The translations under genes and the position numbers were made by a program. DNA of 20,000 nucleotides from the sequence record SRR31156797_6573. One strand, 5' to 3'. How positions within the stretch are numbered: position 1 is the first letter of the stretch; each line of letters starts with the position of its first letter. Below the pieces are notes generated by a model. It searched no databases. It saw nothing but the letters and a program-made list of their open reading frames with translations, and was not told where the DNA came from. Of the stretch, positions 7,807 through 20,000 are shown one piece after another.

Positions 7807-8595
7807 CTACTCAGCATCTTTAGCTAGTCGGAAACCAAGATCTGCCATCACGACGGATTGGCTGACACTATCGCGACGGAAATTTTCGGATTCGTCCGCG
7901 CCAAAAGAGTAGCTTCCTCCGCGTACTGCTTTTTGAGCTAGCGTTGCCTTTTCATCTTTGGCGTTGACAGGGTTTTCTTTCGGGCTGTGGGAATAGTAGT
8001 TTTCGTCAAAGGCGTCGATGACGTACTCGCCGACGTTGCCTGTCATGTCATAAAGCCCGAGTTCATTGGGTTGTTTGAGACCAACGGGGTGCGCTTTATT
8101 ATTTGCGTTGCTTGCGTACCACGCGACATCATCAATGTTGTTTGAGCCGGCGTAAGTGTATTGATTGCTTTTGACGCCGCCTTTCGCTGCAAACTCCCAT
8201 TCAGCTTCCGTTGGTAGACGGTAATGCTCGCCCGTTATTTGATTCAGTTTTTTGATGAACAAGTTAACTTGTTTCCAACTGATGTTGTTAACTGGAACTT
8301 TGGGATCAGGGAAATAACTTGGTGAGTAGCCTGTGACTGATTCAAACAGCTCTTGGGTCATTTCAAACTTGGCTAAATAAAAGCTGTTTACTTTCACTGT
8401 GTGGGCCGGTTTTTCATGACTTTTTGCGGATGGGCTGTCTGAACCCATCGAGTATTGCCCCCCTTCAATGAGTATCATGTCTTTTGCAATAGCCTGAGTA
8501 ATTTGTTCAGTGTCGGCAACCGCGATACCGCTACACAGAAGAGTAACTATAGATACAGAAAGTGACGAAATGGACTTACTTGATAAGCGTTTCAT
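7807..8595 (-). CDS. secreted formylglycine-generating enzyme (FGE-sulfatase/SUMF1) domain protein
   Basis: Signal peptide (…SGIAVA-D), GGQYSMGS, EKPAHTV, YRLPTEAEWEFAAKGG, PNELGLYDMTGNV, RGGS and LGFRL motifs. Confidence 0.9.
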   Translation of the reverse strand: MKRLSSKSISSLSVSIVTLLCSGIAVADTEQITQAIAKDMILIEGGQYSMGSDSPSAKSHEKPAHTVKVNSFYLAKFEMTQELFESVTGYSPSYFPDPKVPVNNISWKQVNLFIKKLNQITGEHYRLPTEAEWEFAAKGGVKSNQYTYAGSNNIDDVAWYASNANNKAHPVGLKQPNELGLYDMTGNVGEYVIDAFDENYYSHSPKENPVNAKDEKATLAQKAVRGGSYSFGADESENFRRDSVSQSVVMADLGFRLAKDAE

Positions 8596-8962: not shown

Positions 8963-9988
8963 ATGCACAAACTATGGGTCGTTGTTGCTTTATTTTGGAG
9001 TATTTCTCTTCGTGCTGAAAGTTTGCTAATTGGAGAAGTGGTCGTTGATGGTGTCTCATATTTTGATATTGAAAATGCACAGGAACATATTGCCAATAAT
9101 AGTGTTATTTATTTAGGCCCTGGTGATTTCACAAAAGGTTTGGTGATTAATAAGGACAATGTTGTCTTATCCGGTAGCCAGGGCACTAAATTTGTAAATG
9201 TAGTGATGCACGGTAAAGGAAGTATTATTACTTCAGGCAAAGATATTACCATTGAAAATATAGAGTGCAGCGGTGTTAGCGTGAGCGCTGGTAACGGGGC
9301 CTGCATCCGCCATGAGGGGCACAATCTTACGCTTAACAATGTGTATTTTCACGACAGTCAGCAAGGTTTGCTAGAAGCAAAAAATGATGGCTACCTAGTG
9401 ATTAAAAATAGCCGTTTTGAGCGATTAGGTCATAAAGGTAGAGCGCACGGTATATATACTAATGGGGCAAAGTTGGTAGTTGAAAACTCAACGTTTGAGT
9501 CGATGGTGAGCCAAGGGCATGCAATAAAGTCGCGTTCAAAAATTACCATTGTAAAAAACTCACTGCTATCCACTGGAGAAGGTAAAGATAGTCGACTCAT
9601 GGATGTTGCCAATGGTGGTGAGTTACATGTGTCTAACAGTGTTCTTTATCAAAACGATCGAACGGTCAACAGGCAGGTGATTGGTTACGGGTTAGAAAGC
9701 TTTGATCAAAACGCGGCGAACAATATTTCTATTCTCAATAACCTATTTGTGATGGAAAGAGTTCGCGGTAACGAATTTTTAGCATTGCCCAAATCTTTAG
9801 ACGCGCAAACCATTATTTTTGTCGATAACAATATTTTTGTCGGGGAATTTTTTGATAGCGAAAATTGGCAAAATAACAACTATCAGTTTAAAAACCGTCA
9901 GGAAGCGATGTTAATGGATTCGGAATTACCTGATGTTTCTTTGCTACCCAAACTTTTCGATTTTTATAAACAGTTAGAGCGTAATTAA
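8963..9988 (+). CDS. secreted right-handed parallel beta-helix repeat protein (pectin-lyase fold)
   Basis: Sec signal (…SISLRA-ES); repeated strands ITIENIEC, LTLNNVYF, LVIKNSRF, LVVENSTF, ISILNNLF; polar motifs HGIY and GHAIKSR. Confidence 0.75.
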   Translation: MHKLWVVVALFWSISLRAESLLIGEVVVDGVSYFDIENAQEHIANNSVIYLGPGDFTKGLVINKDNVVLSGSQGTKFVNVVMHGKGSIITSGKDITIENIECSGVSVSAGNGACIRHEGHNLTLNNVYFHDSQQGLLEAKNDGYLVIKNSRFERLGHKGRAHGIYTNGAKLVVENSTFESMVSQGHAIKSRSKITIVKNSLLSTGEGKDSRLMDVANGGELHVSNSVLYQNDRTVNRQVIGYGLESFDQNAANNISILNNLFVMERVRGNEFLALPKSLDAQTIIFVDNNIFVGEFFDSENWQNNNYQFKNRQEAMLMDSELPDVSLLPKLFDFYKQLERN

Positions 9989-10173
9989 TTTCTTATTAGC
10001 TAATGGTCCTTTAATTTATCAAAGCGAACTCAATAGCGCTTTTGGGCTATGTAGGTGGCTAGATTGCGTACATAAACTTGTTTTTACTGCTAATATCATA
10101 TTTGCGTCAGTGTGCGTTGAGCCCAACGAGTACAATGGAATATTCGTATAGAGGAGGCATTTAAGGCTAGTAT

Positions 10174-12513
10174 ATGGACCAAAACAAAGGGAACTTGCGA
10201 AGTTACATCGATGATGTGCTGGCGCTAACGGTTAAATTTCCGGTTTCGATACTGCTACTGAGCCTTTTGGTGGTTATCGTTTCTACACTTGGCTTAAAGA
10301 ACCTGACCTTTAGAGGTGAATATAATGTGTTCTTTGATCCTTCTAACCCTCAACTCAAAGCCTTTGAAACCATTCAAGCCCGTTTTTCTAAAACGGACAG
10401 TATGGCGATAGTCATCGCACCGAAAGATGGTAATGTTTTTGATTCTAACACGCTTAAGTTAATAAAAGAGATAACGGAAGATGCTTGGCAGACGCCTTAT
10501 TCTAGCCGGGTGGACTCTTTATCCAACTACCAACATACTGAAGCTGAAGAAGATGATCTGTTAGTTGCGGATTTGATTGCTCACGATTTTGCCTATAGCC
10601 CAAACGAAATCGCAAAAGTTAAACAGATCTCATTAAGCTCCCCAGAAACCCAAAATTCTATTGTATCGGCCAATGGTGATGTGGCCGTTATCAATATTAC
10701 GGTTCAATTACCCGAAAAGAACATGACGGGTGAAATTGTTGAAGTGTATGACTTTGTGAGTCAGTTTCTTCAACCCTATCAAGCTGAATACCCGGATATC
10801 GCTTTTTACAAAGCGGGACTAGTTGCAATGAACTATTCATTTATGGACTCAGCGCAAAAGGATATTACCACCTTAGTACCCATTATGATGGTGGTCATAT
10901 TGGTGTTCTTGACCCTGATGCTTCGCTCCATATTCTGTGTTCTTGCAACAATGATTGTCATTACCTGCACCGTAGCAACAACAGCTGGGCTCGCGTCATG
11001 GGCTGGCGTGGCGATGAACATTGCTTCAGTAAACATCCCAACATTGATTCTTACTTTGGCCGTAGCCGACTGTGTTCATATTGTTGTGACTATGCGCCAT
11101 CAGATGGCGAAAGGTGAATCAAAAAGTAACGCGATTGTGTATAGCCTTAAGGTCAATTACGTCCCTGTGCTGATTACATCCATCACCACGGCCATTGGTT
11201 TCTCAATGATGAATATGTCGGATTCACCCGCACTACGATCATTTGGCAGTTTAGCAGCGGTCGGGGTGATGCTGGCGTGTGTTTTTGCACTTATATTACT
11301 GCCAGTACTTCTCAAACTGTTTCCAATTGCGAATGCCACTCTTCACAAAGAAGACGCGCCAAATAGTATGGATACGTTCGGCGATTTTGTAGTTAAGCAC
11401 CAAAATTTATTGCTGGTAGTTTCAGTTGTTACCATTGCTGTTTCAGCATGGCTGATAACGTTGAATCGTATCAATGATGAACCTGCAAAATACTTTGGTA
11501 GTCAAAGTGAGTTTAGGCAAGCCGCTGATTTCATGCAGGACCATATTAGTGGTATGGGCACTGTCAGTATCTCGATTGATAGTAGGCAGGAACACGGAAT
11601 TGTTGAACCTGAATTTCTCAACAACATAGACGCGTTCACCGACTGGTTGAGAGTTCAGCCTGAAGTGGATCATGTTACGTCGCTGACGGATATACTGAAA
11701 CGTTTAAACATGAACATGCATGCAGATGAGTCTTCTTTTTATCGGCTACCTGGAAGTTCAGAACTTGCTGCACAGTACCTTTTGATGTACGAAATGTCGT
11801 TACCTTATGGCCTTGATTTAAATAATCAGATCAATATTGATAAGTCAGCGTTGAAAATACAGGTTGTGACTAAAAATCTCGGTAGTGAAGAGTCCATCGA
11901 CTTGGAACAACGTATCTACGACTGGTTTGATAACCTACCTGATTCGAATGGTGGTTATCATGTTCAGGCATCGAGTCCTTTTATGATGTTTGCGCATATA
12001 GGGGCTACCAACATGAAAAGTATGTTGATTTCGTTGCCGATCAGTTTAGCGATGATCTCAGCGTTACTGATGTTGTCACTCCGTTCTTTTAAACTTGGTT
12101 TAATCAGTATTATTCCAAATATGGTACCGGCAGTGATTGGCTTTGGGGTGTGGGCTTTGATTTCCGCTGAAATTAATCTTGCTCTGTCAGTTGTCGCCTC
12201 ATTAACGCTGGGGATTGTTGTGGATGACGGCGTACACTTTTTGTCTAAGTACAAAATTGCCCGACAGCAAGGGTATGATTGTGAAAATGCCGTTCGTTAT
12301 GCATTTCATCACGTTGGTCGGGCGCTTTGGATAACGACTGTGGTGTTGGTTGCAGGGTTTTCCGTGCTTGCGATGTCAACATTTAGACTAAACTCTGACA
12401 TGGGGATATTGAGCAGTATTATCATATTCATTGCACTCATCATTGACTTCTTTTTCTTACCTTGTCTTTTGATGTTTTTCAGTCGTTCTCGTCGTCAACC
12501 GATAGGGAAGTGA
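10174..12513 (+). CDS. MMPL/RND-family inner-membrane transporter
   Basis: 779 aa with two internal repeats, each a TM helix, a large periplasmic loop and about 5 TM helices. Acidic motifs LAVADCVH and GIVVDDGVHF. Confidence 0.9.
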   Translation: MDQNKGNLRSYIDDVLALTVKFPVSILLLSLLVVIVSTLGLKNLTFRGEYNVFFDPSNPQLKAFETIQARFSKTDSMAIVIAPKDGNVFDSNTLKLIKEITEDAWQTPYSSRVDSLSNYQHTEAEEDDLLVADLIAHDFAYSPNEIAKVKQISLSSPETQNSIVSANGDVAVINITVQLPEKNMTGEIVEVYDFVSQFLQPYQAEYPDIAFYKAGLVAMNYSFMDSAQKDITTLVPIMMVVILVFLTLMLRSIFCVLATMIVITCTVATTAGLASWAGVAMNIASVNIPTLILTLAVADCVHIVVTMRHQMAKGESKSNAIVYSLKVNYVPVLITSITTAIGFSMMNMSDSPALRSFGSLAAVGVMLACVFALILLPVLLKLFPIANATLHKEDAPNSMDTFGDFVVKHQNLLLVVSVVTIAVSAWLITLNRINDEPAKYFGSQSEFRQAADFMQDHISGMGTVSISIDSRQEHGIVEPEFLNNIDAFTDWLRVQPEVDHVTSLTDILKRLNMNMHADESSFYRLPGSSELAAQYLLMYEMSLPYGLDLNNQINIDKSALKIQVVTKNLGSEESIDLEQRIYDWFDNLPDSNGGYHVQASSPFMMFAHIGATNMKSMLISLPISLAMISALLMLSLRSFKLGLISIIPNMVPAVIGFGVWALISAEINLALSVVASLTLGIVVDDGVHFLSKYKIARQQGYDCENAVRYAFHHVGRALWITTVVLVAGFSVLAMSTFRLNSDMGILSSIIIFIALIIDFFFLPCLLMFFSRSRRQPIGK

Positions 12514-12563
12514 AACCATAGATGTTTTTAAGTTCGACGATAAAAAGTGAGGAGCCCTTAATT

Positions 12564-13379
12564 ATGAATTTCTTGTTGGTACCAATGCGAAAACGCGGTA
12601 CTGGTGTAATCGCAGCGCTCAGTGTGTTGTTAATGTGTGTTGTATCTCCGGCGTCGATAGCAGATAGCGCAAAAGGTTTGACTATCGCAAAAGAGAGAAA
12701 GGCTCGCGATGTCGGTTGGAGTGATTCGACTGCGACTGTGACGATGATTTTGAAAAATGCGCAGGGCGATCAAAGCATTCGTAAAATGAGAATGATGTCA
12801 TTAGAAGTTAAAGACGATGGCGATAAAGGACTAACCATTTTTGATGAACCTGGTGACGTAAGGGGCAGTGCGTTTCTTAGCTACTCTCATATTGATGGCG
12901 CGGATGATCAGTGGCTATATTTACCCGCTTTAAAAAGGGTTAAACGTATTTCCTCTCGGAACAAATCTGGCCCTTTTATGGGCAGTGAGTTTTCTTACGA
13001 AGATCTCAGTTCATTTGAAATAGAAAAGTATCAGTTCAACTATCTTAAAGACGAAATGGTAGAAGGGGTGGATTGTTTCTTGGTCGAGCAAAAACCAGTT
13101 GATTCAAACTCAGGTTACACTCGAGAACTGGTTTGGATTGATAAAGCGGAATACCGTCCAATAAAAATGGAATATTATGATCGTAAAAATGCGTTGTTGA
13201 AGGTTCTGACTTTATCCGATTATAAACTGTATAAAGATAAATACTGGCGTGCGCATACACTGAATATGGTCAACAACCAGACTGGAAAAAGTACAGAGTT
13301 GAAGACTGAAGACATACAGTTTAATACTGGCTTGCAGGAACGAGATTTTCATAAAAATGTTTTAACGAGATTGCGCTGA
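12564..13379 (+). CDS. periplasmic outer-membrane lipoprotein-sorting (LolA-like) protein
   Basis: Signal peptide; DDQWLYLPALKRVKRI, FMGSEFSYED and YYDRKNALLK motifs typical of the family. ATG 12564 follows GAGGAG (the ORF track starts at 12522). Confidence 0.85.
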   Translation: MNFLLVPMRKRGTGVIAALSVLLMCVVSPASIADSAKGLTIAKERKARDVGWSDSTATVTMILKNAQGDQSIRKMRMMSLEVKDDGDKGLTIFDEPGDVRGSAFLSYSHIDGADDQWLYLPALKRVKRISSRNKSGPFMGSEFSYEDLSSFEIEKYQFNYLKDEMVEGVDCFLVEQKPVDSNSGYTRELVWIDKAEYRPIKMEYYDRKNALLKVLTLSDYKLYKDKYWRAHTLNMVNNQTGKSTELKTEDIQFNTGLQERDFHKNVLTRLR

Positions 13380-14569
13380 TGGCTTTTAATTCGAAGAGCT
13401 TAATACGTGTTAGTACATCGTTGTGCAGTGTTTTTTGTGTCTTCTTGGCTCAAGCCACAGAGAGTTTAGATTTTCGAGGTCAATTGGGGCTTGAGTTAAG
13501 GCAGTTTCTTGAATCTGGAAAAGACCAACAAGACTCATCGCAAGCTTCTGCTTATGTTCAGCCCGAGTGGAGCTGGTATCTGGATGATGCCGATATCGTG
13601 TTTGTGCCGTTTTATCGTTACGATAATATGGATGACGAGCGTTCTCATGGTGACATAAGAGAACTGTATTATTTTACTTCCCGTGGCGATTACAACCTGA
13701 CGGTGGGTATCAATAAAGTCTTTTGGGGAGTAACAGAGTCTGCACATTTAGTTGATGTGATTAACCAGACAGATTCTATCGAATCGGTTGATGGTGAAGA
13801 TAAACTTGGTCAACCGATGCTGCATTTGACGGCAGTAAAAGATTGGGGCGTGACGGAGTTTTTTATTCTGCCTTATTTTCGGGAAAGAACTTTTTCTGGC
13901 CAAGATGGACGTCTAAGAACGCCTGTACCTATTCAAACAGACCATGCGCAATATGAGTCTGCGAGTAACGAAAAGCACGTTGATTATGCTTTTCGTTACT
14001 CAAATACCTTTGGGGATTGGGATTTTGGTGTCAGTTATCTTGATGGTACAGACCGGGAGCCAAGTCTCTTGGTTCAGGGGGGCGAGATAGTCCCTTATTA
14101 TTCTCAAATGCAGCATGTAGGCGTTGATGTTCAAGGCATCATCGGTGACTGGTTGTGGAAGCTAGAGTCAGTATATAAGAACAGCTATCAAGAGTACGTT
14201 GCTAGTGTTGGTGGGTTTGAATACACGCATGTGGGGCTATTTGGCAAGGTTTGGGATTTAGGATTACTGGCAGAGTATTTATACGATTCTCGAGGCGAGA
14301 ACTCGTTTGCTGTTGGTCAAAACGACTTGTTTGCCGGTTTTCGTTTCGCAATGAATGATGAAGCGAGCAGTGAAGTACTGTTCGGTATGGCCCTGGATTT
14401 AGATAATAGTCGCAGTCAGTATTTTAAGCTTGAGGCCTCTACACGGATATCACAAAGTATGAGCCTTGCTATCGATGCTTGGGCTGCGGATAGCGATAGT
14501 TCTCTTGACCCGCTCTACTCGCTGAAAAACGATGATTTTGTCCAAGCATCGTTAGAATACTATTTTTAG
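13379..14569 (+). CDS. outer-membrane beta-barrel protein
   Basis: Signal peptide (…FLAQA-T), amphipathic aromatic-rich strands, the motif FWGVTESAHLVDVINQTD and a C-terminal beta-signal ASLEYYF. TGATG coupling to the upstream gene. Confidence 0.8.
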   Translation: MAFNSKSLIRVSTSLCSVFCVFLAQATESLDFRGQLGLELRQFLESGKDQQDSSQASAYVQPEWSWYLDDADIVFVPFYRYDNMDDERSHGDIRELYYFTSRGDYNLTVGINKVFWGVTESAHLVDVINQTDSIESVDGEDKLGQPMLHLTAVKDWGVTEFFILPYFRERTFSGQDGRLRTPVPIQTDHAQYESASNEKHVDYAFRYSNTFGDWDFGVSYLDGTDREPSLLVQGGEIVPYYSQMQHVGVDVQGIIGDWLWKLESVYKNSYQEYVASVGGFEYTHVGLFGKVWDLGLLAEYLYDSRGENSFAVGQNDLFAGFRFAMNDEASSEVLFGMALDLDNSRSQYFKLEASTRISQSMSLAIDAWAADSDSSLDPLYSLKNDDFVQASLEYYF

Positions 14570-16038
14570 TTGGCAACAAAACAGCCTTTTTCGTCTTTGA
14601 ATGCTCCTAAGTATATTTCTTTGCCAGTTACAGGCTGACCACAGAAGTCAGTGATTTGTGAAGCTGAATCAATAGGGTAGGGCAGTGCAGTTTTATGGAT
14701 GTCGATACTGTCGTCTCGGATAGTGAAGTTGCCAATTTCTGGAGAAAGGAACACTTGGTTGAGTTTGTCATCATTGTGCCAAAAACCTCTTCCATAGACC
14801 AGATTACCTTCATCTTTTACTAGGCGACCTTTGTCTCTTTCACGTAATTTGCCGCTTACCATATTATTAACGATGGTTGCAGAGCTTTCGGGGAAACGAA
14901 TATCGATGCCTGATGTGTTGTAAATAGTGTTGTTATTAATAAGGCTGTTTTGGCCTCGATTGATATAAATACCCACATCATTGCAATGAGAGATGATGTT
15001 GTTGCGTATGATCGTGTTATTTGCTTCATACGGTGCTTTGTTACGACGATCTTTCATGCCACCGCCCCCAATAGAGAGCCCGACTTGAGAGCCCGTATAC
15101 CGTGTTTTAGATGTATTGCAGACAATTAAATTGTTCTCAAAAATACCGCTGGTTGTACCGCCTTTCATAAAAGCGCCATAGCTAATTTTGTTGCCTCCAG
15201 TCTTAATAAAATCACGAATAATATTTTTACTGACATGCCAGTGATCGCCGTGATCGATATTAACTGGGGTGACGGGTGATCCTGTTTTTTGTGGAGAAGT
15301 AGAATAGAAGTAGTTATTTGTTACCGTACCATTGTCTGGGTATAAGTTCTGGTCGGTATAGCCATTTATCTTCAATGCAGCATTGAAATTGACAAATTCA
15401 TTGTTGGAGACAGTTGTATGATCGGCATCGCTGACAATATGAATCGCGTGTTCGCATTTTGAACTGGTACACTCAAATCGAAAACCGTTAATCGTCCAAT
15501 AGGGTTGGTGAAGAAAAATACCTTCAGATGTCTGCATTAACAGGTTTACGCTTCCTGGCTGTTCAGCTAGCAGTGTAATAGGATTATCGGCAGTTGCGAT
15601 TTCGCTACTGGTATTAAACCTTTTGCTTTTTAGTACATAGTCACCTGCAGCAACCACAATGGTTTCTCCAGGTTTGACTTGACGAAGAGCTTCAAGTAAC
15701 GCTTTTGAATCAGAGACATACAAAGTTGCGTTGGACATCAAGTTGAACTTAGTGTCTTGCACGGAAAAGTCTGGGCCAATCATTGGCCAGTGTTCTCTTT
15801 GAAAGGGTTTCCATTGATAGGAAGGGCGGTCGAGTGATTGTGCTGTACTTTTTAGAGTAGGACCGAGTCGATTAAATACAGGTATATCGCTCACTCTATA
15901 AGCTAAGGTGCTTAGTGCATTTGGAACAGTACCAAGTTGGCGAACTAAGTTGGCGAAAACATACGCTTCGTACATAATAGCTAGGTTCAGTATCACGCCC
16001 ATAAACATTAGGTAATAACGTAACCACTTGAAATGCAT
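14566..16038 (-). CDS. N-terminally membrane-anchored right-handed beta-helix protein (chondroitinase-B/PL6-like polysaccharide-modifying enzyme)
   Basis: N-terminal TM segment; ALRQVKPGETIVVAAGDY and TADNPITLLAEQPGSV resemble beta-helix lyase caps; Asn-ladder repeats (VSNNEF, VTNNYF, IFENNLI, IIRNNII, LINNNTI). Confidence 0.75.
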   Translation of the reverse strand: MHFKWLRYYLMFMGVILNLAIMYEAYVFANLVRQLGTVPNALSTLAYRVSDIPVFNRLGPTLKSTAQSLDRPSYQWKPFQREHWPMIGPDFSVQDTKFNLMSNATLYVSDSKALLEALRQVKPGETIVVAAGDYVLKSKRFNTSSEIATADNPITLLAEQPGSVNLLMQTSEGIFLHQPYWTINGFRFECTSSKCEHAIHIVSDADHTTVSNNEFVNFNAALKINGYTDQNLYPDNGTVTNNYFYSTSPQKTGSPVTPVNIDHGDHWHVSKNIIRDFIKTGGNKISYGAFMKGGTTSGIFENNLIVCNTSKTRYTGSQVGLSIGGGGMKDRRNKAPYEANNTIIRNNIISHCNDVGIYINRGQNSLINNNTIYNTSGIDIRFPESSATIVNNMVSGKLRERDKGRLVKDEGNLVYGRGFWHNDDKLNQVFLSPEIGNFTIRDDSIDIHKTALPYPIDSASQITDFCGQPVTGKEIYLGAFKDEKGCFVAN

Positions 16039-16096: not shown

Positions 16097-17185
16097 TTAA
16101 ATCCAAGCATCCTCATTCTTTTCCTTTACGGTGAGAGTGACGAAAGCCTTTCTCAATAGATGTGGTACCAGTAACTTTACGGGCATACGCTTTAGATGCC
16201 CACGAATGTAAAGAACCCAAACAGCAGCATGATGGCCTGGCAATCTATTTGGAGGGAAAGAATGGAACAATGCTCGCTTAAAAGCGAAATCAGCCACTGC
16301 CAGTTTGAGACGACTTGGCTTGTATCGTTGATAAAACACCTCCACATGCTGAGGCACGACTAAATCGAAGGCTTGTTGGCAATAGCGTAATGCGTAATAC
16401 ATTGAGTCTCCGTTTCCTATTTGCGTTTGCAGCTCCTTGAGTTGGTTCCAAAACTCTGGTTGACTGGAAAAACGGATGAGCAACAGATATAGGTCGTAGA
16501 GATCTCTGATGCCTTTATTGTATTCGCTTTCGTAAAATAGGTGTATTGCACTGTGAATAACCATCGCAGCCGGACTTAATATCTTACCTGTATTTTCATT
16601 GTCATCGATATTTATCGCTTGTGATCTTAACAGTGAAGGGTCGGGCGATTCCTTAAGCGTATTCGGTAAGATATTAAAGTGTAAATCTAACTCAGTACGT
16701 CGCTTAAGGTGGCGCATCGGTGGTATCTCTTGAGACCATTGGCGATAGAATTTTTGGTCATAATCATTGAGGTGTGTAGAGAGCCAGCCTTGCTCTCTCA
16801 ATGTTTTTTCTACGTTAGCTAAGACTGCTTCTGAGACAAGAATGTCAATATCACTCATTAGCCTGCCTGAAAACTCGTTAAAACCTGCGAAATGGTATGC
16901 AGACCCTTTCAAATACACCCATTCGATATTTAGAGCGGTAAAGATCTTTTGAAACTGGCGTTTTTCAAAATACAGTTGGTCTTGTTGGTGAACGAAAATA
17001 GCATGGGCAGCATAGATATGTTGCCTGATACTGGAAGGAAGTTGTTCCCATTGACCCATTTTCTCGAACGCGGGCTTGAGTTGAGCAAGCATATTGAAGT
17101 ATCGCGCTTCTGCGATTACTAACGATTGTTGTTTCTTCGTTAGGGTTAAAAAACATGCAGGATCAGCTAGACAATTAATAAGCAT
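16097..17185 (-). CDS. nucleotidyltransferase family protein (NTP_transf_5-like)
   Basis: LKGSAY…GRLMSDIDILV (DxD catalytic motif), ELDLHF and IRDLYDLY. ATG 17185 has a GAGGT SD; the ORF-track start at 17197 is the alternative. Confidence 0.85.
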   Translation of the reverse strand: MLINCLADPACFLTLTKKQQSLVIAEARYFNMLAQLKPAFEKMGQWEQLPSSIRQHIYAAHAIFVHQQDQLYFEKRQFQKIFTALNIEWVYLKGSAYHFAGFNEFSGRLMSDIDILVSEAVLANVEKTLREQGWLSTHLNDYDQKFYRQWSQEIPPMRHLKRRTELDLHFNILPNTLKESPDPSLLRSQAINIDDNENTGKILSPAAMVIHSAIHLFYESEYNKGIRDLYDLYLLLIRFSSQPEFWNQLKELQTQIGNGDSMYYALRYCQQAFDLVVPQHVEVFYQRYKPSRLKLAVADFAFKRALFHSFPPNRLPGHHAAVWVLYIRGHLKRMPVKLLVPHLLRKAFVTLTVKEKNEDAWI

Positions 17186-18104
17186 CGGCAACCTCATTTT
17201 TTAAGGTGTTGTTCATTGCCGAAAGAATCGCTTGTTCGCAAGAATGAAAGTTATTGTATTCGATATAACTAGCAGGGGTTTGAGTCACAAGCTCTTTTGC
17301 ACATTGAAATCCTGCCTTATTTAACACGTTAATATTAAAGCTATTTCTTATTATTTCAGTTAACGCAATAGCAGGTTCAACGGTTTCTGTGTAACAGTTT
17401 TCATCCTTGGTGTAATGGACAAACACAATTTGAGCAGGCCGTACTGGAGCGTTAGAAACCTTTGCATCTGATGAATACGCTTTTAACAAGCTGATGGTTC
17501 CTTTGTGAGTGTCTTTGACCACTTTGCTGAACTGTTCGTCTTTATAATACTCGCGTAGCAACTCGATTGAATTGTTTTTAAGATTAATCGGTCGGCCTAA
17601 ACCGTAAAGTTGCATGGTATTGGGGTCTATCAATGCAAGTTCATCAGATAAAAGTTGCCATCCTTTTGAGACGAGGTAAGCACATAAAGTGCTTTTACCT
17701 GATCCAGAAGGCGCTGAGATGATGATAGCTTGGTCACCTTTAGCCACAGTCGCGGCGTGTAAGATAAAGTATTGGTGTGCTTGACTCGCAATAACCCAGT
17801 TCATCCCCCATTCTAAGAATGCGTGCGCTTGATCAAGTGGTAGGGGCTTAAATGGAGATTGATGATTAAATTTAAAGTTGGCCTGTGGTTTGTATAAACG
17901 TCGATATAGGCTGCCATGATTGACCTCAACGTAATAGTCAACAAAGTGGTCGCCACTAGATTCTAACAAGCAATCACTATAATGATGTTCTATATAGCGG
18001 TGGAGAGAGGAGATATCCGAACGAACGGAAAAAACAAAGGGACCAACGGTAATACAATACTCTTTCGTTTTTTTCACTCTGAATGCTCTAGCTTTGGATT
18101 TCAA
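17175..18104 (-). CDS. HprK-related kinase (HprK-rel-A type)
   Basis: LEWGMNW, LHAATV, Walker A APSGSGKST, LLSDELALID, RPINLKNNSI and THKGTI. The start is TTG 18104 or GTG 18077. Confidence 0.85.
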   Translation of the reverse strand: MKSKARAFRVKKTKEYCITVGPFVFSVRSDISSLHRYIEHHYSDCLLESSGDHFVDYYVEVNHGSLYRRLYKPQANFKFNHQSPFKPLPLDQAHAFLEWGMNWVIASQAHQYFILHAATVAKGDQAIIISAPSGSGKSTLCAYLVSKGWQLLSDELALIDPNTMQLYGLGRPINLKNNSIELLREYYKDEQFSKVVKDTHKGTISLLKAYSSDAKVSNAPVRPAQIVFVHYTKDENCYTETVEPAIALTEIIRNSFNINVLNKAGFQCAKELVTQTPASYIEYNNFHSCEQAILSAMNNTLKNEVADAY

Positions 18105-18375
18105 TGATGTGTAGCTCAGCTAGTTGCTGAATGACGTTTTTAGCTTTAGCTGGATGAGTTTTAAGTAGGTGCTTAAAAGACATATCTGGTTCAGCAGTAA
18201 GCTGAACCAGATAATCAATCACTGACGGTTCACAAAGAAGTGTTTCACCAATAAAAGGACTATAAATTACACCACGCCCTTCACTCAAAAAAGTGCACTC
18301 ATTAATCGAAAAAGAAGGGTGTATGGTAATTTTGCTCTCTTCAGTGAGCATTAAGTCCGTTTTATTCTGTTCCAT
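18088..18375 (-). CDS. PqqD/RiPP-recognition-element (RRE)-like small protein of the HPr-rel-A cassette
   Basis: 95 aa with three short beta-strands (GVIYSPFIGETLLC) followed by helices ending IQQLAELHII, the usual PqqD pattern. It lies directly upstream of the kinase. Confidence 0.65.
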   Translation of the reverse strand: MEQNKTDLMLTEESKITIHPSFSINECTFLSEGRGVIYSPFIGETLLCEPSVIDYLVQLTAEPDMSFKHLLKTHPAKAKNVIQQLAELHIIEIQS

Positions 18376-18378
18376 CGA

Positions 18379-19284
18379 TCAGTAGTGGTTTTGCCAAGTT
18401 TTATTCAAGTTATCTCTTAAGTTCGATAGCGGAGAGTTAAAAGATGATTGATAATTTCGACCATCTCTAGCGATACCTTCCGCCATGTGAGAAATAGCTG
18501 CCATAAATCCGTTTACAATATCCGTTTGGGTAAATTGATAATTGATGACGTTTGGAGCAAGAAGGCCATTTAAATATCCACAAGTTAAGTACTTATGTAA
18601 GTTAGTATCGGAAATATTGACATCAAAGCATCTGTCGTTATCCCTACTAGTGATGTTGTAACCGAAAGAACCGAAGTGGCTATTTTGATGCCCGTGGTAA
18701 CCGCCAGAGCTGATCATTGAGCTATTATGCTGTATTCGCAAAAGGATATTTAAATTATTGGATTGCAAAGCTCCATGGACTGTTGGAGCGTCACTTTGAC
18801 TGGCTAAGATTTTGTATTTCCAATGAGTTTGTGTTCTGCAAGAATTCCAACTGGAAAGTTCATTACAAAATAGACCCAAAAACGATGTGTAGGAGTGTAT
18901 CCCGCAAATCGCTAACGCATCTTTAACCGATTGAGAATTCACATGGCCCCTGTCTTTGAATATATCCCACAAATTCCCTTTACCTGAAAATTTGCCATCG
19001 AAAACATCACACCAATCGATAGGTTTTTTGGGTTTACAATTCGAGCTACTAGCTGTTGAAACGTTACCAGATATTTGACCAGCAACACTGGTGTTAGTGA
19101 TATTAGCACCTGTCCACGATGCCGGGCTTTTGACTGACATTAATAATGGTGAAGCGGCAATTCCGGTTTGGATAAATCGACGTCTAGAAAAGCGAGAAGA
19201 CTGAGGCTCTCTTTTTTGTCCTGCAGCTAATGGCGCTTGTACTTTATCATCCGTTTTTTCAGTTGGAGATGGTTGAGTATCCAT
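18379..19284 (-). CDS. hypothetical exported protein with twin-arginine-like leader and Ser/Thr-rich segment
   Basis: AAGGA SD; SRRRFIQTGIAASPLLMSVKSPAS; 11 Ser/Thr in residues 56-81; 7 Cys. The stop is 3 nt before the PqqD-like ATG. Confidence 0.75.
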   Translation of the reverse strand: MDTQPSPTEKTDDKVQAPLAAGQKREPQSSRFSRRRFIQTGIAASPLLMSVKSPASWTGANITNTSVAGQISGNVSTASSSNCKPKKPIDWCDVFDGKFSGKGNLWDIFKDRGHVNSQSVKDALAICGIHSYTSFLGLFCNELSSWNSCRTQTHWKYKILASQSDAPTVHGALQSNNLNILLRIQHNSSMISSGGYHGHQNSHFGSFGYNITSRDNDRCFDVNISDTNLHKYLTCGYLNGLLAPNVINYQFTQTDIVNGFMAAISHMAEGIARDGRNYQSSFNSPLSNLRDNLNKTWQNHY

Positions 19285-19363
19285 AATCCTTTCCTAGTGT
19301 TTAGCTGACGTACTTGAACTTATAACTACCCAGCGTTAACGTCATTTGTTTTCCGATTACACG

Positions 19364-20000
19364 TTATTTTTTTAACGCATACTTATCCATTAATGAGTAT
19401 AGCGTAGGCCTGGTAATTCCCAACAAATTCGCTGTATTAGAAATATTGCCATCCATAATTGAAATCGCCTGACTAATTGCCCATTTTTCAGCATCTTCCC
19501 TGACTTTCTTAAGATTCAGATCTAGGGTTGTTGCTTTTTCATCTATGTTAAGCGCGAGATCATGTGCGGTAATTTGTTTCCCGTCTGACATAATACTCGC
19601 CGCTTTGACTTTATTCTGCAGTTCACGCACGTTACCTGGCCAAGGATATTTTATAAGTGCATCAACAGCTTCGTCATTAAATCCGTTAATTTGCTTACCT
19701 ATAGCTTGGCACTGGCTTTGTAAAACAGCGCGTGCAATTAAAATAATATCACCATCTCTTTCCCTTAGTGGGGGTATTTGAATGGTAATCTCACTTATGC
19801 GATAAAATAAATCTTCTCTAAACAGCTTTTCATTGACCATATGCTCTAAATTTTGGTGCGTGGCACAAATGATGCGGATATCGACCGGGATATCTTCGCG
19901 GCCGCCGACGCGAGTGATGACCTTTTCTTGTAAAAAGCGCAGCATTTTCGCTTGGAGTGCTAAAGGCATATCACCAATCTCATCCAGAAAAAGCGTACCG
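19364..20000 (-). CDS. prsR: sigma-54-dependent enhancer-binding response regulator, PrsR (PEP-CTERM-box regulator)-like; 5' part lies outside the window
   Basis: The frame is open to the window edge: GTLFLDEIGDMP (Walker B), LQAKMLRFLQE, FREDLFYRI, WPGNVREL and a Fis-type HTH ending LLGITRPTLYSLM. The VGGREDIPVD and YRISEITIQIPPLRERDGD segments match PrsR as I recall it. Confidence 0.75.
   Translation of the reverse strand, partial: GTLFLDEIGDMPLALQAKMLRFLQEKVITRVGGREDIPVDIRIICATHQNLEHMVNEKLFREDLFYRISEITIQIPPLRERDGDIILIARAVLQSQCQAIGKQINGFNDEAVDALIKYPWPGNVRELQNKVKAASIMSDGKQITAHDLALNIDEKATTLDLNLKKVREDAEKWAISQAISIMDGNISNTANLLGITRPTLYSLMDKYALKK

Follow-up and report, generated by a model that had tools for sequence, protein, structure and literature searches.

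A conserved RRE, HprK-related kinase and NTP_transf_5 cassette paired with a candidate exported substrate

Gene content of the cassette

The window, a 20,000-nt stretch of record SRR31156797_6573, contains four adjoining minus-strand ORFs (Table 1). The gene for a 301-aa protein is followed downstream by an RRE-like gene and then by that of a kinase, with a transferase gene last. By ORF coordinates, 3 nt separate the 301-aa and 95-aa ORFs, and the flanks of the cassette measure 79 nt upstream and 58 nt downstream. The more probable kinase start, judged from sequence, is the GTG listed in Table 1, since the resulting 300 aa equal the length of a 93%-identical relative (P0001); for the transferase, the listed ATG is more probable because it lies 6 nt downstream of a GAGG.

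Table 1. Positions of the cassette genes, of features within the 301-aa protein and of the neighbouring prsR fragment.
Feature	Position	Strand	Basis
301-aa candidate substrate, unnamed family	18379..19284	-	ORF; without Pfam/NCBIfam match
Leader, residues 33-58	19111..19188	-	sequence; conservation in 223 relatives
Ser core, residues 65-83	19036..19092	-	family pattern C-x2-S-x3-S-x3-S-x6-C
C-terminal folded domain	18391..19038	-	model; motifs [ST]PG[YF]W ... HxxAAxLNA
95-aa stand-alone RRE, PqqD-like winged helix, divergent TIGR04353 orthologue	18088..18375	-	hhalign to positional homologues
HprK-related kinase A, 309-aa ORF, probable start GTG 18077	17175..18104	-	TIGR04352
NTP_transf_5 nucleotidyltransferase-fold enzyme, 366-aa ORF, probable start ATG 17185	16097..17197	-	PF14907
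prsR 3' part, PEP-CTERM-box sigma-54 response regulator (context)	19364..20000	-	TIGR02915 best match

The kinase scores 293.4 bits against TIGR04352 (HprK-related kinase A), for which the cut-off is 200. Its Walker A sequence, APSGSGKST (residues 131-139, positions 17688-17714), is intact, and across 42 aligned kinases residues H116, G134, G136, K137, S138, T139, D154 and E155 are invariant, and H116 aligns to the 'MHG' histidine of HPrK. The transferase scores 135.7 bits against PF14907 (NTP_transf_5; cut-off 31.2). Both Asp residues of its DxD motif (D116 and D118, positions 16844-16852) are invariant in 75 sequences, as are K97-G98, R112, D171 and H173, while its profile found no match at E<=1 among solved structures.

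Assignment of the 95-aa protein follows a less direct route. It has no Pfam or NCBIfam match at E<=0.1, missing TIGR04353 (35-bit cut-off), a model that is matched in none of three Vibrio cassette genomes although 66 of 76 positional homologues do match it. When the six Vibrionaceae homologues were compared by hhalign with the 70 others, the two groups aligned with a probability of 95.6% (E 1.3e-8). By ESM features the protein is nearest to MftB, and its family profile matches TfuB1 at E 0.0026. The single-sequence model is of beta3-alpha3 form (pLDDT 76) and resembles the solved RREs PqqD (Z 6.4, rmsd 2.9, 82 residues aligned), PbtF (6.2) and TbiB1 (5.9), matches that all fall below Z 8 and tie with non-RRE winged-helix domains. 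Since there is no Pfam or NCBIfam match, the description 'PqqD-like' rests on profile-profile, ESM and model evidence, and on these sequence grounds we call the protein a divergent RRE, an orthologue of the TIGR04353 proteins rather than a member of TIGR04353.

An earlier note on this DNA had described four abutting minus-strand genes with the positions and gaps given above, an HprK-like kinase with intact Walker A and DE motifs and a DxD nucleotidyltransferase, and had suggested searches with the corresponding HMMs; the ORF list, the two profile scores and the residue conservation bear all of this out. Its PqqD-like RRE is upheld by the alignment to TIGR04353-type homologues, but not by the search with the TIGR04353 model itself.

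Leader, Ser core and C-terminal domain of the 301-aa protein

Profile scans of the 301-aa protein gave no Pfam or NCBIfam match, and the ESM Atlas returned unnamed clusters only (recognition 2014, under the 2300 mark). A profile of 69 non-Vibrionaceae relatives recovers it among 13,911 ORFs with an E-value of 5.6e-10, and its family comprises 3,862 clusters at 50% identity (E<=1e-10), proteins consisting of the C-terminal domain only being included. The architecture consists of a disordered N-terminus, a twin-arginine-type leader, a Ser core and a folded C-terminal domain. In the structural model pLDDT is below 60 for residues 1-80 and, bar a few loops, mostly 83-96 beyond.

The leader opens with the twin-arginine motif S33-R-R-R-F-I-Q, continues with 15 uncharged residues, in which the family alignment has the h-region pattern P-[VL]-[LI]-[LM]-[TS]-[LV], and ends in a basic c-region. 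Among 223 relatives R34 and R35 are conserved at 100%, T/S50 at 96% and S53 at 91%, and the mean top-residue frequency is 0.54-0.62 in leader and core as against 0.11 in residues 1-32, figures that are partly circular in that 149 of the 223 sequences were picked by the same profile. A Tat signal carries an S/T-R-R-x-F-L-K-like motif followed by an uncharged h-region. Applied strictly, this rule is passed by 36 of 74 and 62 of 149 relatives (shuffled mean 2.4 for the 74); relaxed at position +3, it is passed by 72 of 74 and 141 of 149. The [YW]xxPx[LVIAFY] RRE-binding motif of lasso and LPP leaders was found in the leader of just one of the 223. We propose from the sequence that residues 33-58 act as both RRE-binding and export signal.

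The window carries a Vibrionaceae variant of the cassette in which T65 and A68 stand in place of the core's first Cys and first Ser; S72 (19069-19071), S76 (19057-19059) and C83 are retained. The S72 column holds Ser in 213 of 223 relatives and Thr in none. Both core Cys residues are present in 193, neither in 10 and one in 13 of 216 relatives, these being raw counts in which four of five 'first Cys only' rows proved by eye to be regex misses. That the Cys are mostly present or absent together is as expected of a disulfide. The protein itself ends in QNHY, and a C-terminal Ser occurs in 29 of 223 relatives. In precursors of a divergent type, a Ser occupies one alignment column in 17 of 19, three residues past a likely A-x-A site; the count comes from the alignment column, the cleavage-site regex being circular as it demanded a downstream Ser. 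The domain behind the leader is thus exchangeable among precursors; the Ser stays.

Copies of the C-terminal domain also occur as tandem repeats and within giant SdrD_B adhesin-like proteins. When the 301-aa model was used for fold searches, the best Z was 3.9 and there was no Foldseek match at E<=0.001, which does not of itself show a new fold, and the precursor profile found a single match, at E 0.85, among solved structures.

Co-occurrence and genomic context

The cassette gene order is recurrent across Proteobacteria and is thereby far beyond chance. A member of the 301-aa family is the partner in 76 of 80 loci selected by their kinase; two of the remaining four are truncated upstream and two have a divergent or broken RR-leader ORF. 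An NTP_transf_5 gene lies downstream of the kinase, likewise in 76 of 80, with three misses truncated and one real (L072, a full-length locus having no adjacent transferase). An even sample of 301 genomes from one order, with counts that ignore kinship, yielded 56 carriers of the kinase, 51 of the precursor and 48 of both, and all eight kinase-only genomes have an RR-leader ORF of the same type directly before the RRE. The precursor profile matches lie within 3 kb of a kinase in 50 of 57 cases, so that ordinary Tat substrates are not being picked up by it. The cassette had been termed 'orphan' in the earlier note, which also advised a check of neighbourhood co-occurrence; the association is confirmed, and the term must be dropped because the 301-aa protein is a conserved partner. 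The four-gene unit is real, widespread and so far unstudied.

Kinase loci are tightly linked to PrsK and EPS genes, PrsK being present in 54 of the 56 kinase carriers. In the window, the prsR fragment scores 314 bits against TIGR02915 over a truncated 211 aa (whole-protein cut-off 502.6), and at the matching place in L001, a syntenic Vibrio locus, lie prsK-prsR and a gene for a PEP-CTERM protein. Conservation of the 79-nt upstream gap was seen with this locus only. The PEP-CTERM box TGT-N11-ACA, a motif described previously (PMC1569441), is found ahead of the first gene at 36 of 71 loci compared with 4.8 in shuffles, where the test was for a 17-nt box ending TTTACA plus a sigma-54 site upstream of the operon. 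The box is absent before the window copy and four other Vibrionaceae loci tested, and in Vibrionaceae loci of this kind prsR is mostly directly upstream. Scans for sigma-70 promoters (10 against 14.1) and terminators (6 against 4.6) were at chance level. Contigs from two RNA-library runs of one study (X12 and X16) span parts of the region, although contigs cannot show transcription.

Precedents, proposed route and alternatives

The enzyme trio is catalogued in NCBIfam without a function, as the HPr-rel-A system (TIGR04352, TIGR04353 and PF14907); the earlier note had described the HprK-rel-A/PqqD cassette as a family of unknown function. Kinase family, gene order and position of the RRE orthologue are common to both; the differences are that the RRE of Vibrionaceae does not reach the threshold of the TIGR04353 model and that the fourth, precursor gene has no family model. 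In print we found neither a function nor a substrate for this system, nor a paper joining a twin-arginine signal, RiPP recognition element, kinase and precursor, in searches of literature where the family names are absent from main texts and subscription journals are mostly uncovered.

The linear polyphosphorylated peptides (LPP) of Bacillota (Popov et al. 2026, PMC13381572) share with the cassette a stand-alone RRE, a kinase resembling HprK and an NTP transferase without cyclase, as well as a conserved leader, variable C-terminus, Ser near the leader and location in polysaccharide loci. LppK and PbaK are labelled TIGR04352 in the supplement of that paper, LppA is modified at core S3, S3T is rejected by LppK, and deletion of lppN was without effect in a heterologous host. 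The cassette appears to work as LPP clusters do but does not belong among them: it is proteobacterial and PrsK/PrsR-linked, has no YxxP motif and combines a twin-arginine leader with a folded adhesin-type domain. An SpI-like leader peptidase, an LPP trait, was found neither in 11 window proteins and four upstream L001 proteins nor among those clusters of recurrent neighbours that were scanned, while an MsbA-like exporter, another such trait, is absent from the scanned window proteins and occurs at a distance of up to 10 kb in 8 of 83 loci.

In phosphorylated and phosphoglycosylated lasso peptides (paeninodin PadeK; pseudomycoidin PsmK/PsmN; PMC8498205, PMC6993621) an HprK-type kinase and then a DxD NTP transferase act on Ser, as proposed here. 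The DxD-requiring PsmN is needed for additions of 162 and 324 Da to phospho-Ser, though it might only make the substrate of a host glycosyltransferase (PMC6993621). Lasso-locus enzymes are distant homologues of those in the cassette, which differs in having no cyclase or B2 and in its internal rather than C-terminal candidate Ser. Bufferins, MNIO-modified and Sec-exported small proteins, offer a precedent in which a folded protein bearing an export signal of the general type undergoes RiPP-type modification and a partner contains an RRE, and modification there does not need the signal peptide (PMC11626156); they differ in their Cys thiooxazole chemistry and in using Sec, not Tat.

We suggest from sequence comparison that the RRE, Ser kinase and transferase probably decorate a Ser near the start of an exported protein, and that the cassette probably borrows a modified-peptide natural product toolkit within an exopolysaccharide programme. 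That the 301-aa protein is the substrate is very likely, and on balance we favour a five-step cytoplasmic tailoring line serving this one exported protein. The precursor would be made with an N-terminal segment acting as Tat signal and probably also as RiPP leader. The RRE, whose fold has indirect support, would with reasonable likelihood bind the conserved hydrophobic part of this leader and present the adjacent disordered Ser core; a complex prediction for the RRE with precursor residues 26-95, made without alignments and with controls not folded, scored 0.00 twice and counts neither for nor against this. Phosphorylation, perhaps polyphosphorylation, of S72 and possibly S76 by the kinase is likely by analogy with LppK, PadeK and PsmK, the site being intact. 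The NTP_transf_5 enzyme would then cap the phosphate, for which a hexose, as for PsmN, has about an even chance, an NMP or other group being possible. The folded, decorated protein would exit via Tat and lose its signal to a housekeeping signal peptidase, the Cys pair would form a disulfide in members having both Cys, and the adhesin-type domain might present the modified tail within the envelope or the EPS matrix, with expression alongside the PEP-CTERM/EPS regulon. The leader-directed Ser/Thr modification of a full-size exported protein within a surface/EPS regulon, envisaged earlier, is supported by co-occurrence, Ser conservation, the PrsK/PrsR link and the lack of lasso machinery, but for Ser only, not Thr; of the nucleotidylation or phosphodiester linkage put forward as the next step, hexose capping of phosphate is by precedent likelier than NMP.

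It is unlikely that the kinase and transferase act elsewhere in the EPS/PEP-CTERM system, on a sugar, on a lipid carrier or on different surface proteins, with the 301-aa protein a co-regulated structural partner or chaperone client. The tight PrsK/EPS linkage would fit, as would a possible role of PsmN in making a sugar donor rather than in acting on the peptide (PMC6993621) and one genome, possibly incomplete, in which two precursors lie in tandem but kinase, RRE and transferase have no match (G256). Against it, a Vibrio alfacsensis plasmid and a Sphingomonas replicon each carry the four-gene set by itself, with no EPS genes alongside, and the Ser is strictly conserved beside an exchangeable domain. 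A stand-alone RRE, moreover, implies a ribosomal peptide ligand.

An LPP-like short product, with the phosphorylated Ser core cut out and the C-terminal domain serving only as carrier or follower, is distinctly unlikely. Exchangeable C-terminal domains, the 65- and 79-codon RR-leader ORFs of a related, more distant cassette (G303) and a trypsin-like peptidase gene no more than 10 kb away in 21 of 83 loci speak for it; the peptidase and exporter results given above do not, and the domain is conserved, is modelled as folded with high confidence and recurs in adhesins. We consider it very unlikely that the twin-arginine segment is solely an RRE-recognition leader, the modified protein being cytoplasmic or exported otherwise. 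In about half of relatives a large hydrophobic residue at position +3 gives way to T, A or G, and the h-region is position-conserved, but the invariant RR, uncharged stretch, basic c-region and A-x-A-like end argue for Tat, as do the paired Cys and the recurrence of the domain in extracellular adhesins. Conversion of phosphorylated Ser to dehydroalanine and addition of Cys, giving lanthionine-like cross-links in the Ser-core loop with the transferase as activating enzyme, is highly improbable: Cys and Ser are indeed conserved together in a short loop, but the Ser is kept in the 10 sequences that have neither Cys, the Cys co-vary with each other, no lyase or cyclase was seen among scanned neighbours and characterised relatives leave the phosphate on (PMC13381572, PMC6993621).

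That these are tailoring genes of a lasso pathway with cyclase, peptidase and precursor elsewhere in the genome is close to refuted: among proteins encoded next to B2 genes, locus profiles do weakly match transferases, RREs and kinases (the last at E 2e-6 to 2e-15), but in the genome-wide search, which covered relatives of the window's strain, PF13471 (lasso B2 peptidase) had no match in any of five cassette genomes, the closest Vibrio included, and B2 exceeds the cut-off in only one of 56 kinase carriers. The cyclase search covered the scanned window proteins, namely 11 (the four cassette ORFs, six neighbours as far down as position 7807 and the prsR fragment) selected for Pfam/NCBIfam scanning from a list of ORFs of at least 60 aa; none is a lasso cyclase or peptidase, in agreement with the earlier note.

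Returning to the tailoring line, we tentatively extend it to a widespread and so far undescribed bacterial form of protein O-phosphoglycosylation (Ser-phosphate-sugar). A single N-terminal peptide would double as Tat signal and RiPP leader, the RRE would be a Tat proofreading chaperone holding export until tailoring is complete, and any fused domain would be decorated and sent to the biofilm matrix. A catalogued cassette lacking an assigned function, present in 56 of 301 genomes of the sampled order, here gains a concrete candidate substrate and residue. Should the proposal hold, leader logic of the RiPP kind would be tied to the export of folded proteins by Tat, a defined substrate would be at hand on which to test the NTP_transf_5 reaction, and a modified matrix protein would be added to the biology of PEP-CTERM/EPS flocs and biofilms. 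That the domain is exchangeable further suggests a portable tag for site-specific phospho-decoration.

Identity of the cassette and its RRE

The four minus-strand ORFs of the cassette were confirmed from the ORF listing and the sequence, with gaps of 3, 58 and 79 nt; the likely true starts of the kinase and transferase are GTG 18077 and ATG 17185, respectively. Both enzyme assignments of the earlier note were borne out by HMM search, the HprK-like kinase matching TIGR04352 with 293.4 bits (cut-off 200) and the last gene product, proposed as a nucleotidyltransferase, matching PF14907 with 135.7 bits. Both enzymes are intact, and their catalytic motifs are invariant in alignments of relatives. 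The family-model search gave no match for the 95-aa and 301-aa proteins. The closest named relatives of the kinase are from Vibrio, and a Vibrio locus (L001) is syntenic with the window; upstream, L001 carries prsK-prsR and a gene for a PEP-CTERM protein. The system is real. It is the form that the catalogued HPr-rel-A cassette (TIGR04352, TIGR04353 and PF14907) takes in Vibrionaceae; a literature search found no paper on it within the limits of the library searched.

The 95-aa protein had been described as PqqD-like. Its predicted structure (pLDDT 76) has three strands followed by helices; top structural matches include PqqD, PbtF, TbiB1 and TfuB1 (Z 5.5-6.4), with which unrelated winged helices tie, and Foldseek gave no match at E≤0.001. 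The nearest protein by ESM features is MftB. TIGR04353 is matched by 66 of 76 positional homologues. A profile of the 70 non-Vibrionaceae homologues reached the window protein only at E 2.1, while profile-profile alignment with them gave a probability of 95.6% (E 1.3e-8). By sequence comparison it is a divergent RRE orthologue: the homology stands, membership of the TIGR04353 model does not.

The precursor as a conserved partner

Among the best 80 of 435 loci confirmed in a kinase-profile scan, the precursor is present in 76, the RRE in 75 and the transferase in 76, iterated profiles having been run over 13,911 ORFs. The four precursor misses comprise two truncated loci and two with a divergent or broken RR-leader ORF; transferase misses comprise three truncated loci and one (L072) truly without an adjacent transferase. 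A profile built without Vibrionaceae detects the 301-aa protein at E 5.6e-10. The cluster of enzyme trio and exported-type protein is real, as first described, but the label 'orphan' is not apt, the 301-aa protein being an obligate-looking partner.

Co-occurrence across genomes, a check suggested earlier, agreed. From one order, that of genome G004, 301 genomes were drawn evenly; the kinase exceeded its cut-off in 56, the precursor profile matched in 51 and both were found in 48, counts that ignore kinship and genome completeness and, for the precursor profile, cover only 10 candidates per genome. All eight kinase-only genomes have an RR-leader ORF ahead of the RRE, and 50 of 57 precursor-profile matches lie within 3 kb of a kinase. 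The three precursor-only genomes are G141 and G303, with weak matches, and the draft genome G256, with two strong tandem full-length copies, where kinase, RRE and transferase were sought with no match. That the 301-aa protein is the substrate of the cassette enzymes we regard as highly probable.

Gene order varies occasionally (table), being kinase-transferase-precursor-RRE at locus L101. The distant cassette of G303 is possibly a short-peptide version.

Precursor anatomy and proposed modification

Residues 1-80 of the 301-aa model are predicted to be disordered and the remainder mostly folded. Across 223 precursors (74 from loci plus 149 profile-selected, hence a partly circular set), R34-R35 is invariant and the h-region is conserved by position (T/S50 96%, S53 91%). 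Ser occupies positions 68, 72 and 76 in 212, 213 and 188 of these, with no Thr at 72. Since the flanking Cys residues co-vary (both in 193, neither in 10 and one only in 13 of 216 precursors) while Ser persists without them, a disulfide is favoured over a thioether. The window precursor has T65 and A68; S68 is missing from the other Vibrionaceae copies too, making S72 the best single candidate. A basic c-region is a feature of Tat signals. A Tat rule was satisfied in relaxed form by 72/74 and 141/149 precursors of the loci and profile-selected sets, and in strict form by 36/74 and 62/149 (shuffled means 2.4 and 5.4); the lasso/LPP leader motif occurs in 1/223.

Precursors of a second type share the leader but carry unrelated domains; in 17 of these 19, a single alignment column holds Ser, three residues past a likely A-x-A site. 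The C-terminal domain of the 301-aa type occurs as six repeats in protein P0129, there Cys-bracketed, and within proteins of 2,878 aa (with 17 SdrD_B stretches) and at least 1,597 aa; structure searches with the 301-aa model matched no solved fold, and no Pfam model fitted.

The RRE would bind the precursor leader, the kinase would phosphorylate S72, the transferase would cap the phosphate, and the decorated precursor would leave by Tat export. The leader-directed modification proposed earlier keeps its footing in the intact enzymes, RRE homology, obligate-looking partner, conserved Ser, export-type motif and regulon link; the chain as a whole we consider somewhat more probable than not. The RRE can be likened to Tat proofreading chaperones.

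Precedents exist for individual steps. Passages of PMC13381572 describe LppK as polyphosphorylating core S3 and rejecting Thr, and lppN deletion as silent. Its supplement labels LppK and PbaK TIGR04352, despite which lasso-locus kinases scored far below the window kinase family in our searches. According to passages of PMC6993621 and the review PMC8498205, phospho-Ser acquires one or two hexoses only when PsmN, with its DxD, is present. Bufferins, in passages of PMC11626156, exemplify RiPP chemistry on folded, signal-bearing proteins, the signal being dispensable for modification; the bufferin passages of PMC12452194 do not mention Tat. The cassette resembles LPP systems in its probable way of working but, having no SpI among the proteins scanned, no core MsbA and no YxxP motif, falls outside them. 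It also falls outside lasso peptide clusters: B2 peptidase occurs in 0/5 cassette genomes and 1/56 kinase carriers.

Regulon context and neighbouring features

The comparisons show a link to the suggested surface/EPS regulon. Genes of the XrtA/PEP-CTERM system recur around the cassette: of 83 loci, 33 have a PrsR-like gene nearby, 29 PrsK and 24 PrsT. PrsK is present in 54/56 kinase carriers, yet 42/96 PrsK carriers lack the kinase, and the cassette is thus an accessory of the PrsK/PEP-CTERM system. TGT-N11-ACA lies upstream of the first cassette gene in 36 of the 71 loci tested out of 83 (shuffle mean 4.84, maximum 10), 81-106 nt from a sigma-54 site in 13 cases, and agrees with the 17-nt motif ending in TTTACA described for the PEP-CTERM system in passages of PMC1569441. 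The window cassette directly follows prsR, with no such box upstream. EPS genes do not accompany the four-gene set on a Vibrio alfacsensis plasmid, whose setting L004 resembles, or on a Sphingomonas replicon. The 490-aa gene may be co-transcribed with the cassette.

Features of the window and of compared loci
Feature	Location	Strand	Remarks
Cassette	window 16097-19284	-	
FGE-sulfatase-domain protein	window 7807-8595		signal-like N-terminus; syntenic in L001 too
Beta-helix protein	window 8963-9988	+	flanks MMPL/RND trio
Beta-helix protein, 490 aa	window 14566-16038	-	Chondroitinase B-like match; flanks MMPL/RND trio; 58 nt downstream of cassette
Block of the two beta-helix genes and, between them, an MMPL/RND, LolA-like and unassigned outer-membrane-like trio	window 8963-16038		block syntenic with L001, partially with L002
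Inverted repeat (tgacgt...acgtca)	window 19295-19345		in 79-nt prsR-cassette gap; kept in L001 only
Tandem precursors, G256	L083:5901-7688		
Tandem precursors	L027:8113-9548		
Inverted precursor	L042:12060-12659		downstream of transferase
Second cassette copy	L039:5664-8231		partial or broken
Distant cassette, G303	L105:11523-14662		kinase far below TIGR04352 cut-off, with RRE and transferase; preceded by two short ORFs (65 and 79 codons), same RR-leader type, Ser soon after leader
[ST]PG[YF]W...HxxAAxLNA domain	L103:2016-10652; L104:3-4796		giant adhesin-like proteins
Plasmid cassette, NZ_AP024168.1	L081:18908-21987		alone among catabolic genes
Plasmid RRE ORF	L081:19757-20011		absent from gene table
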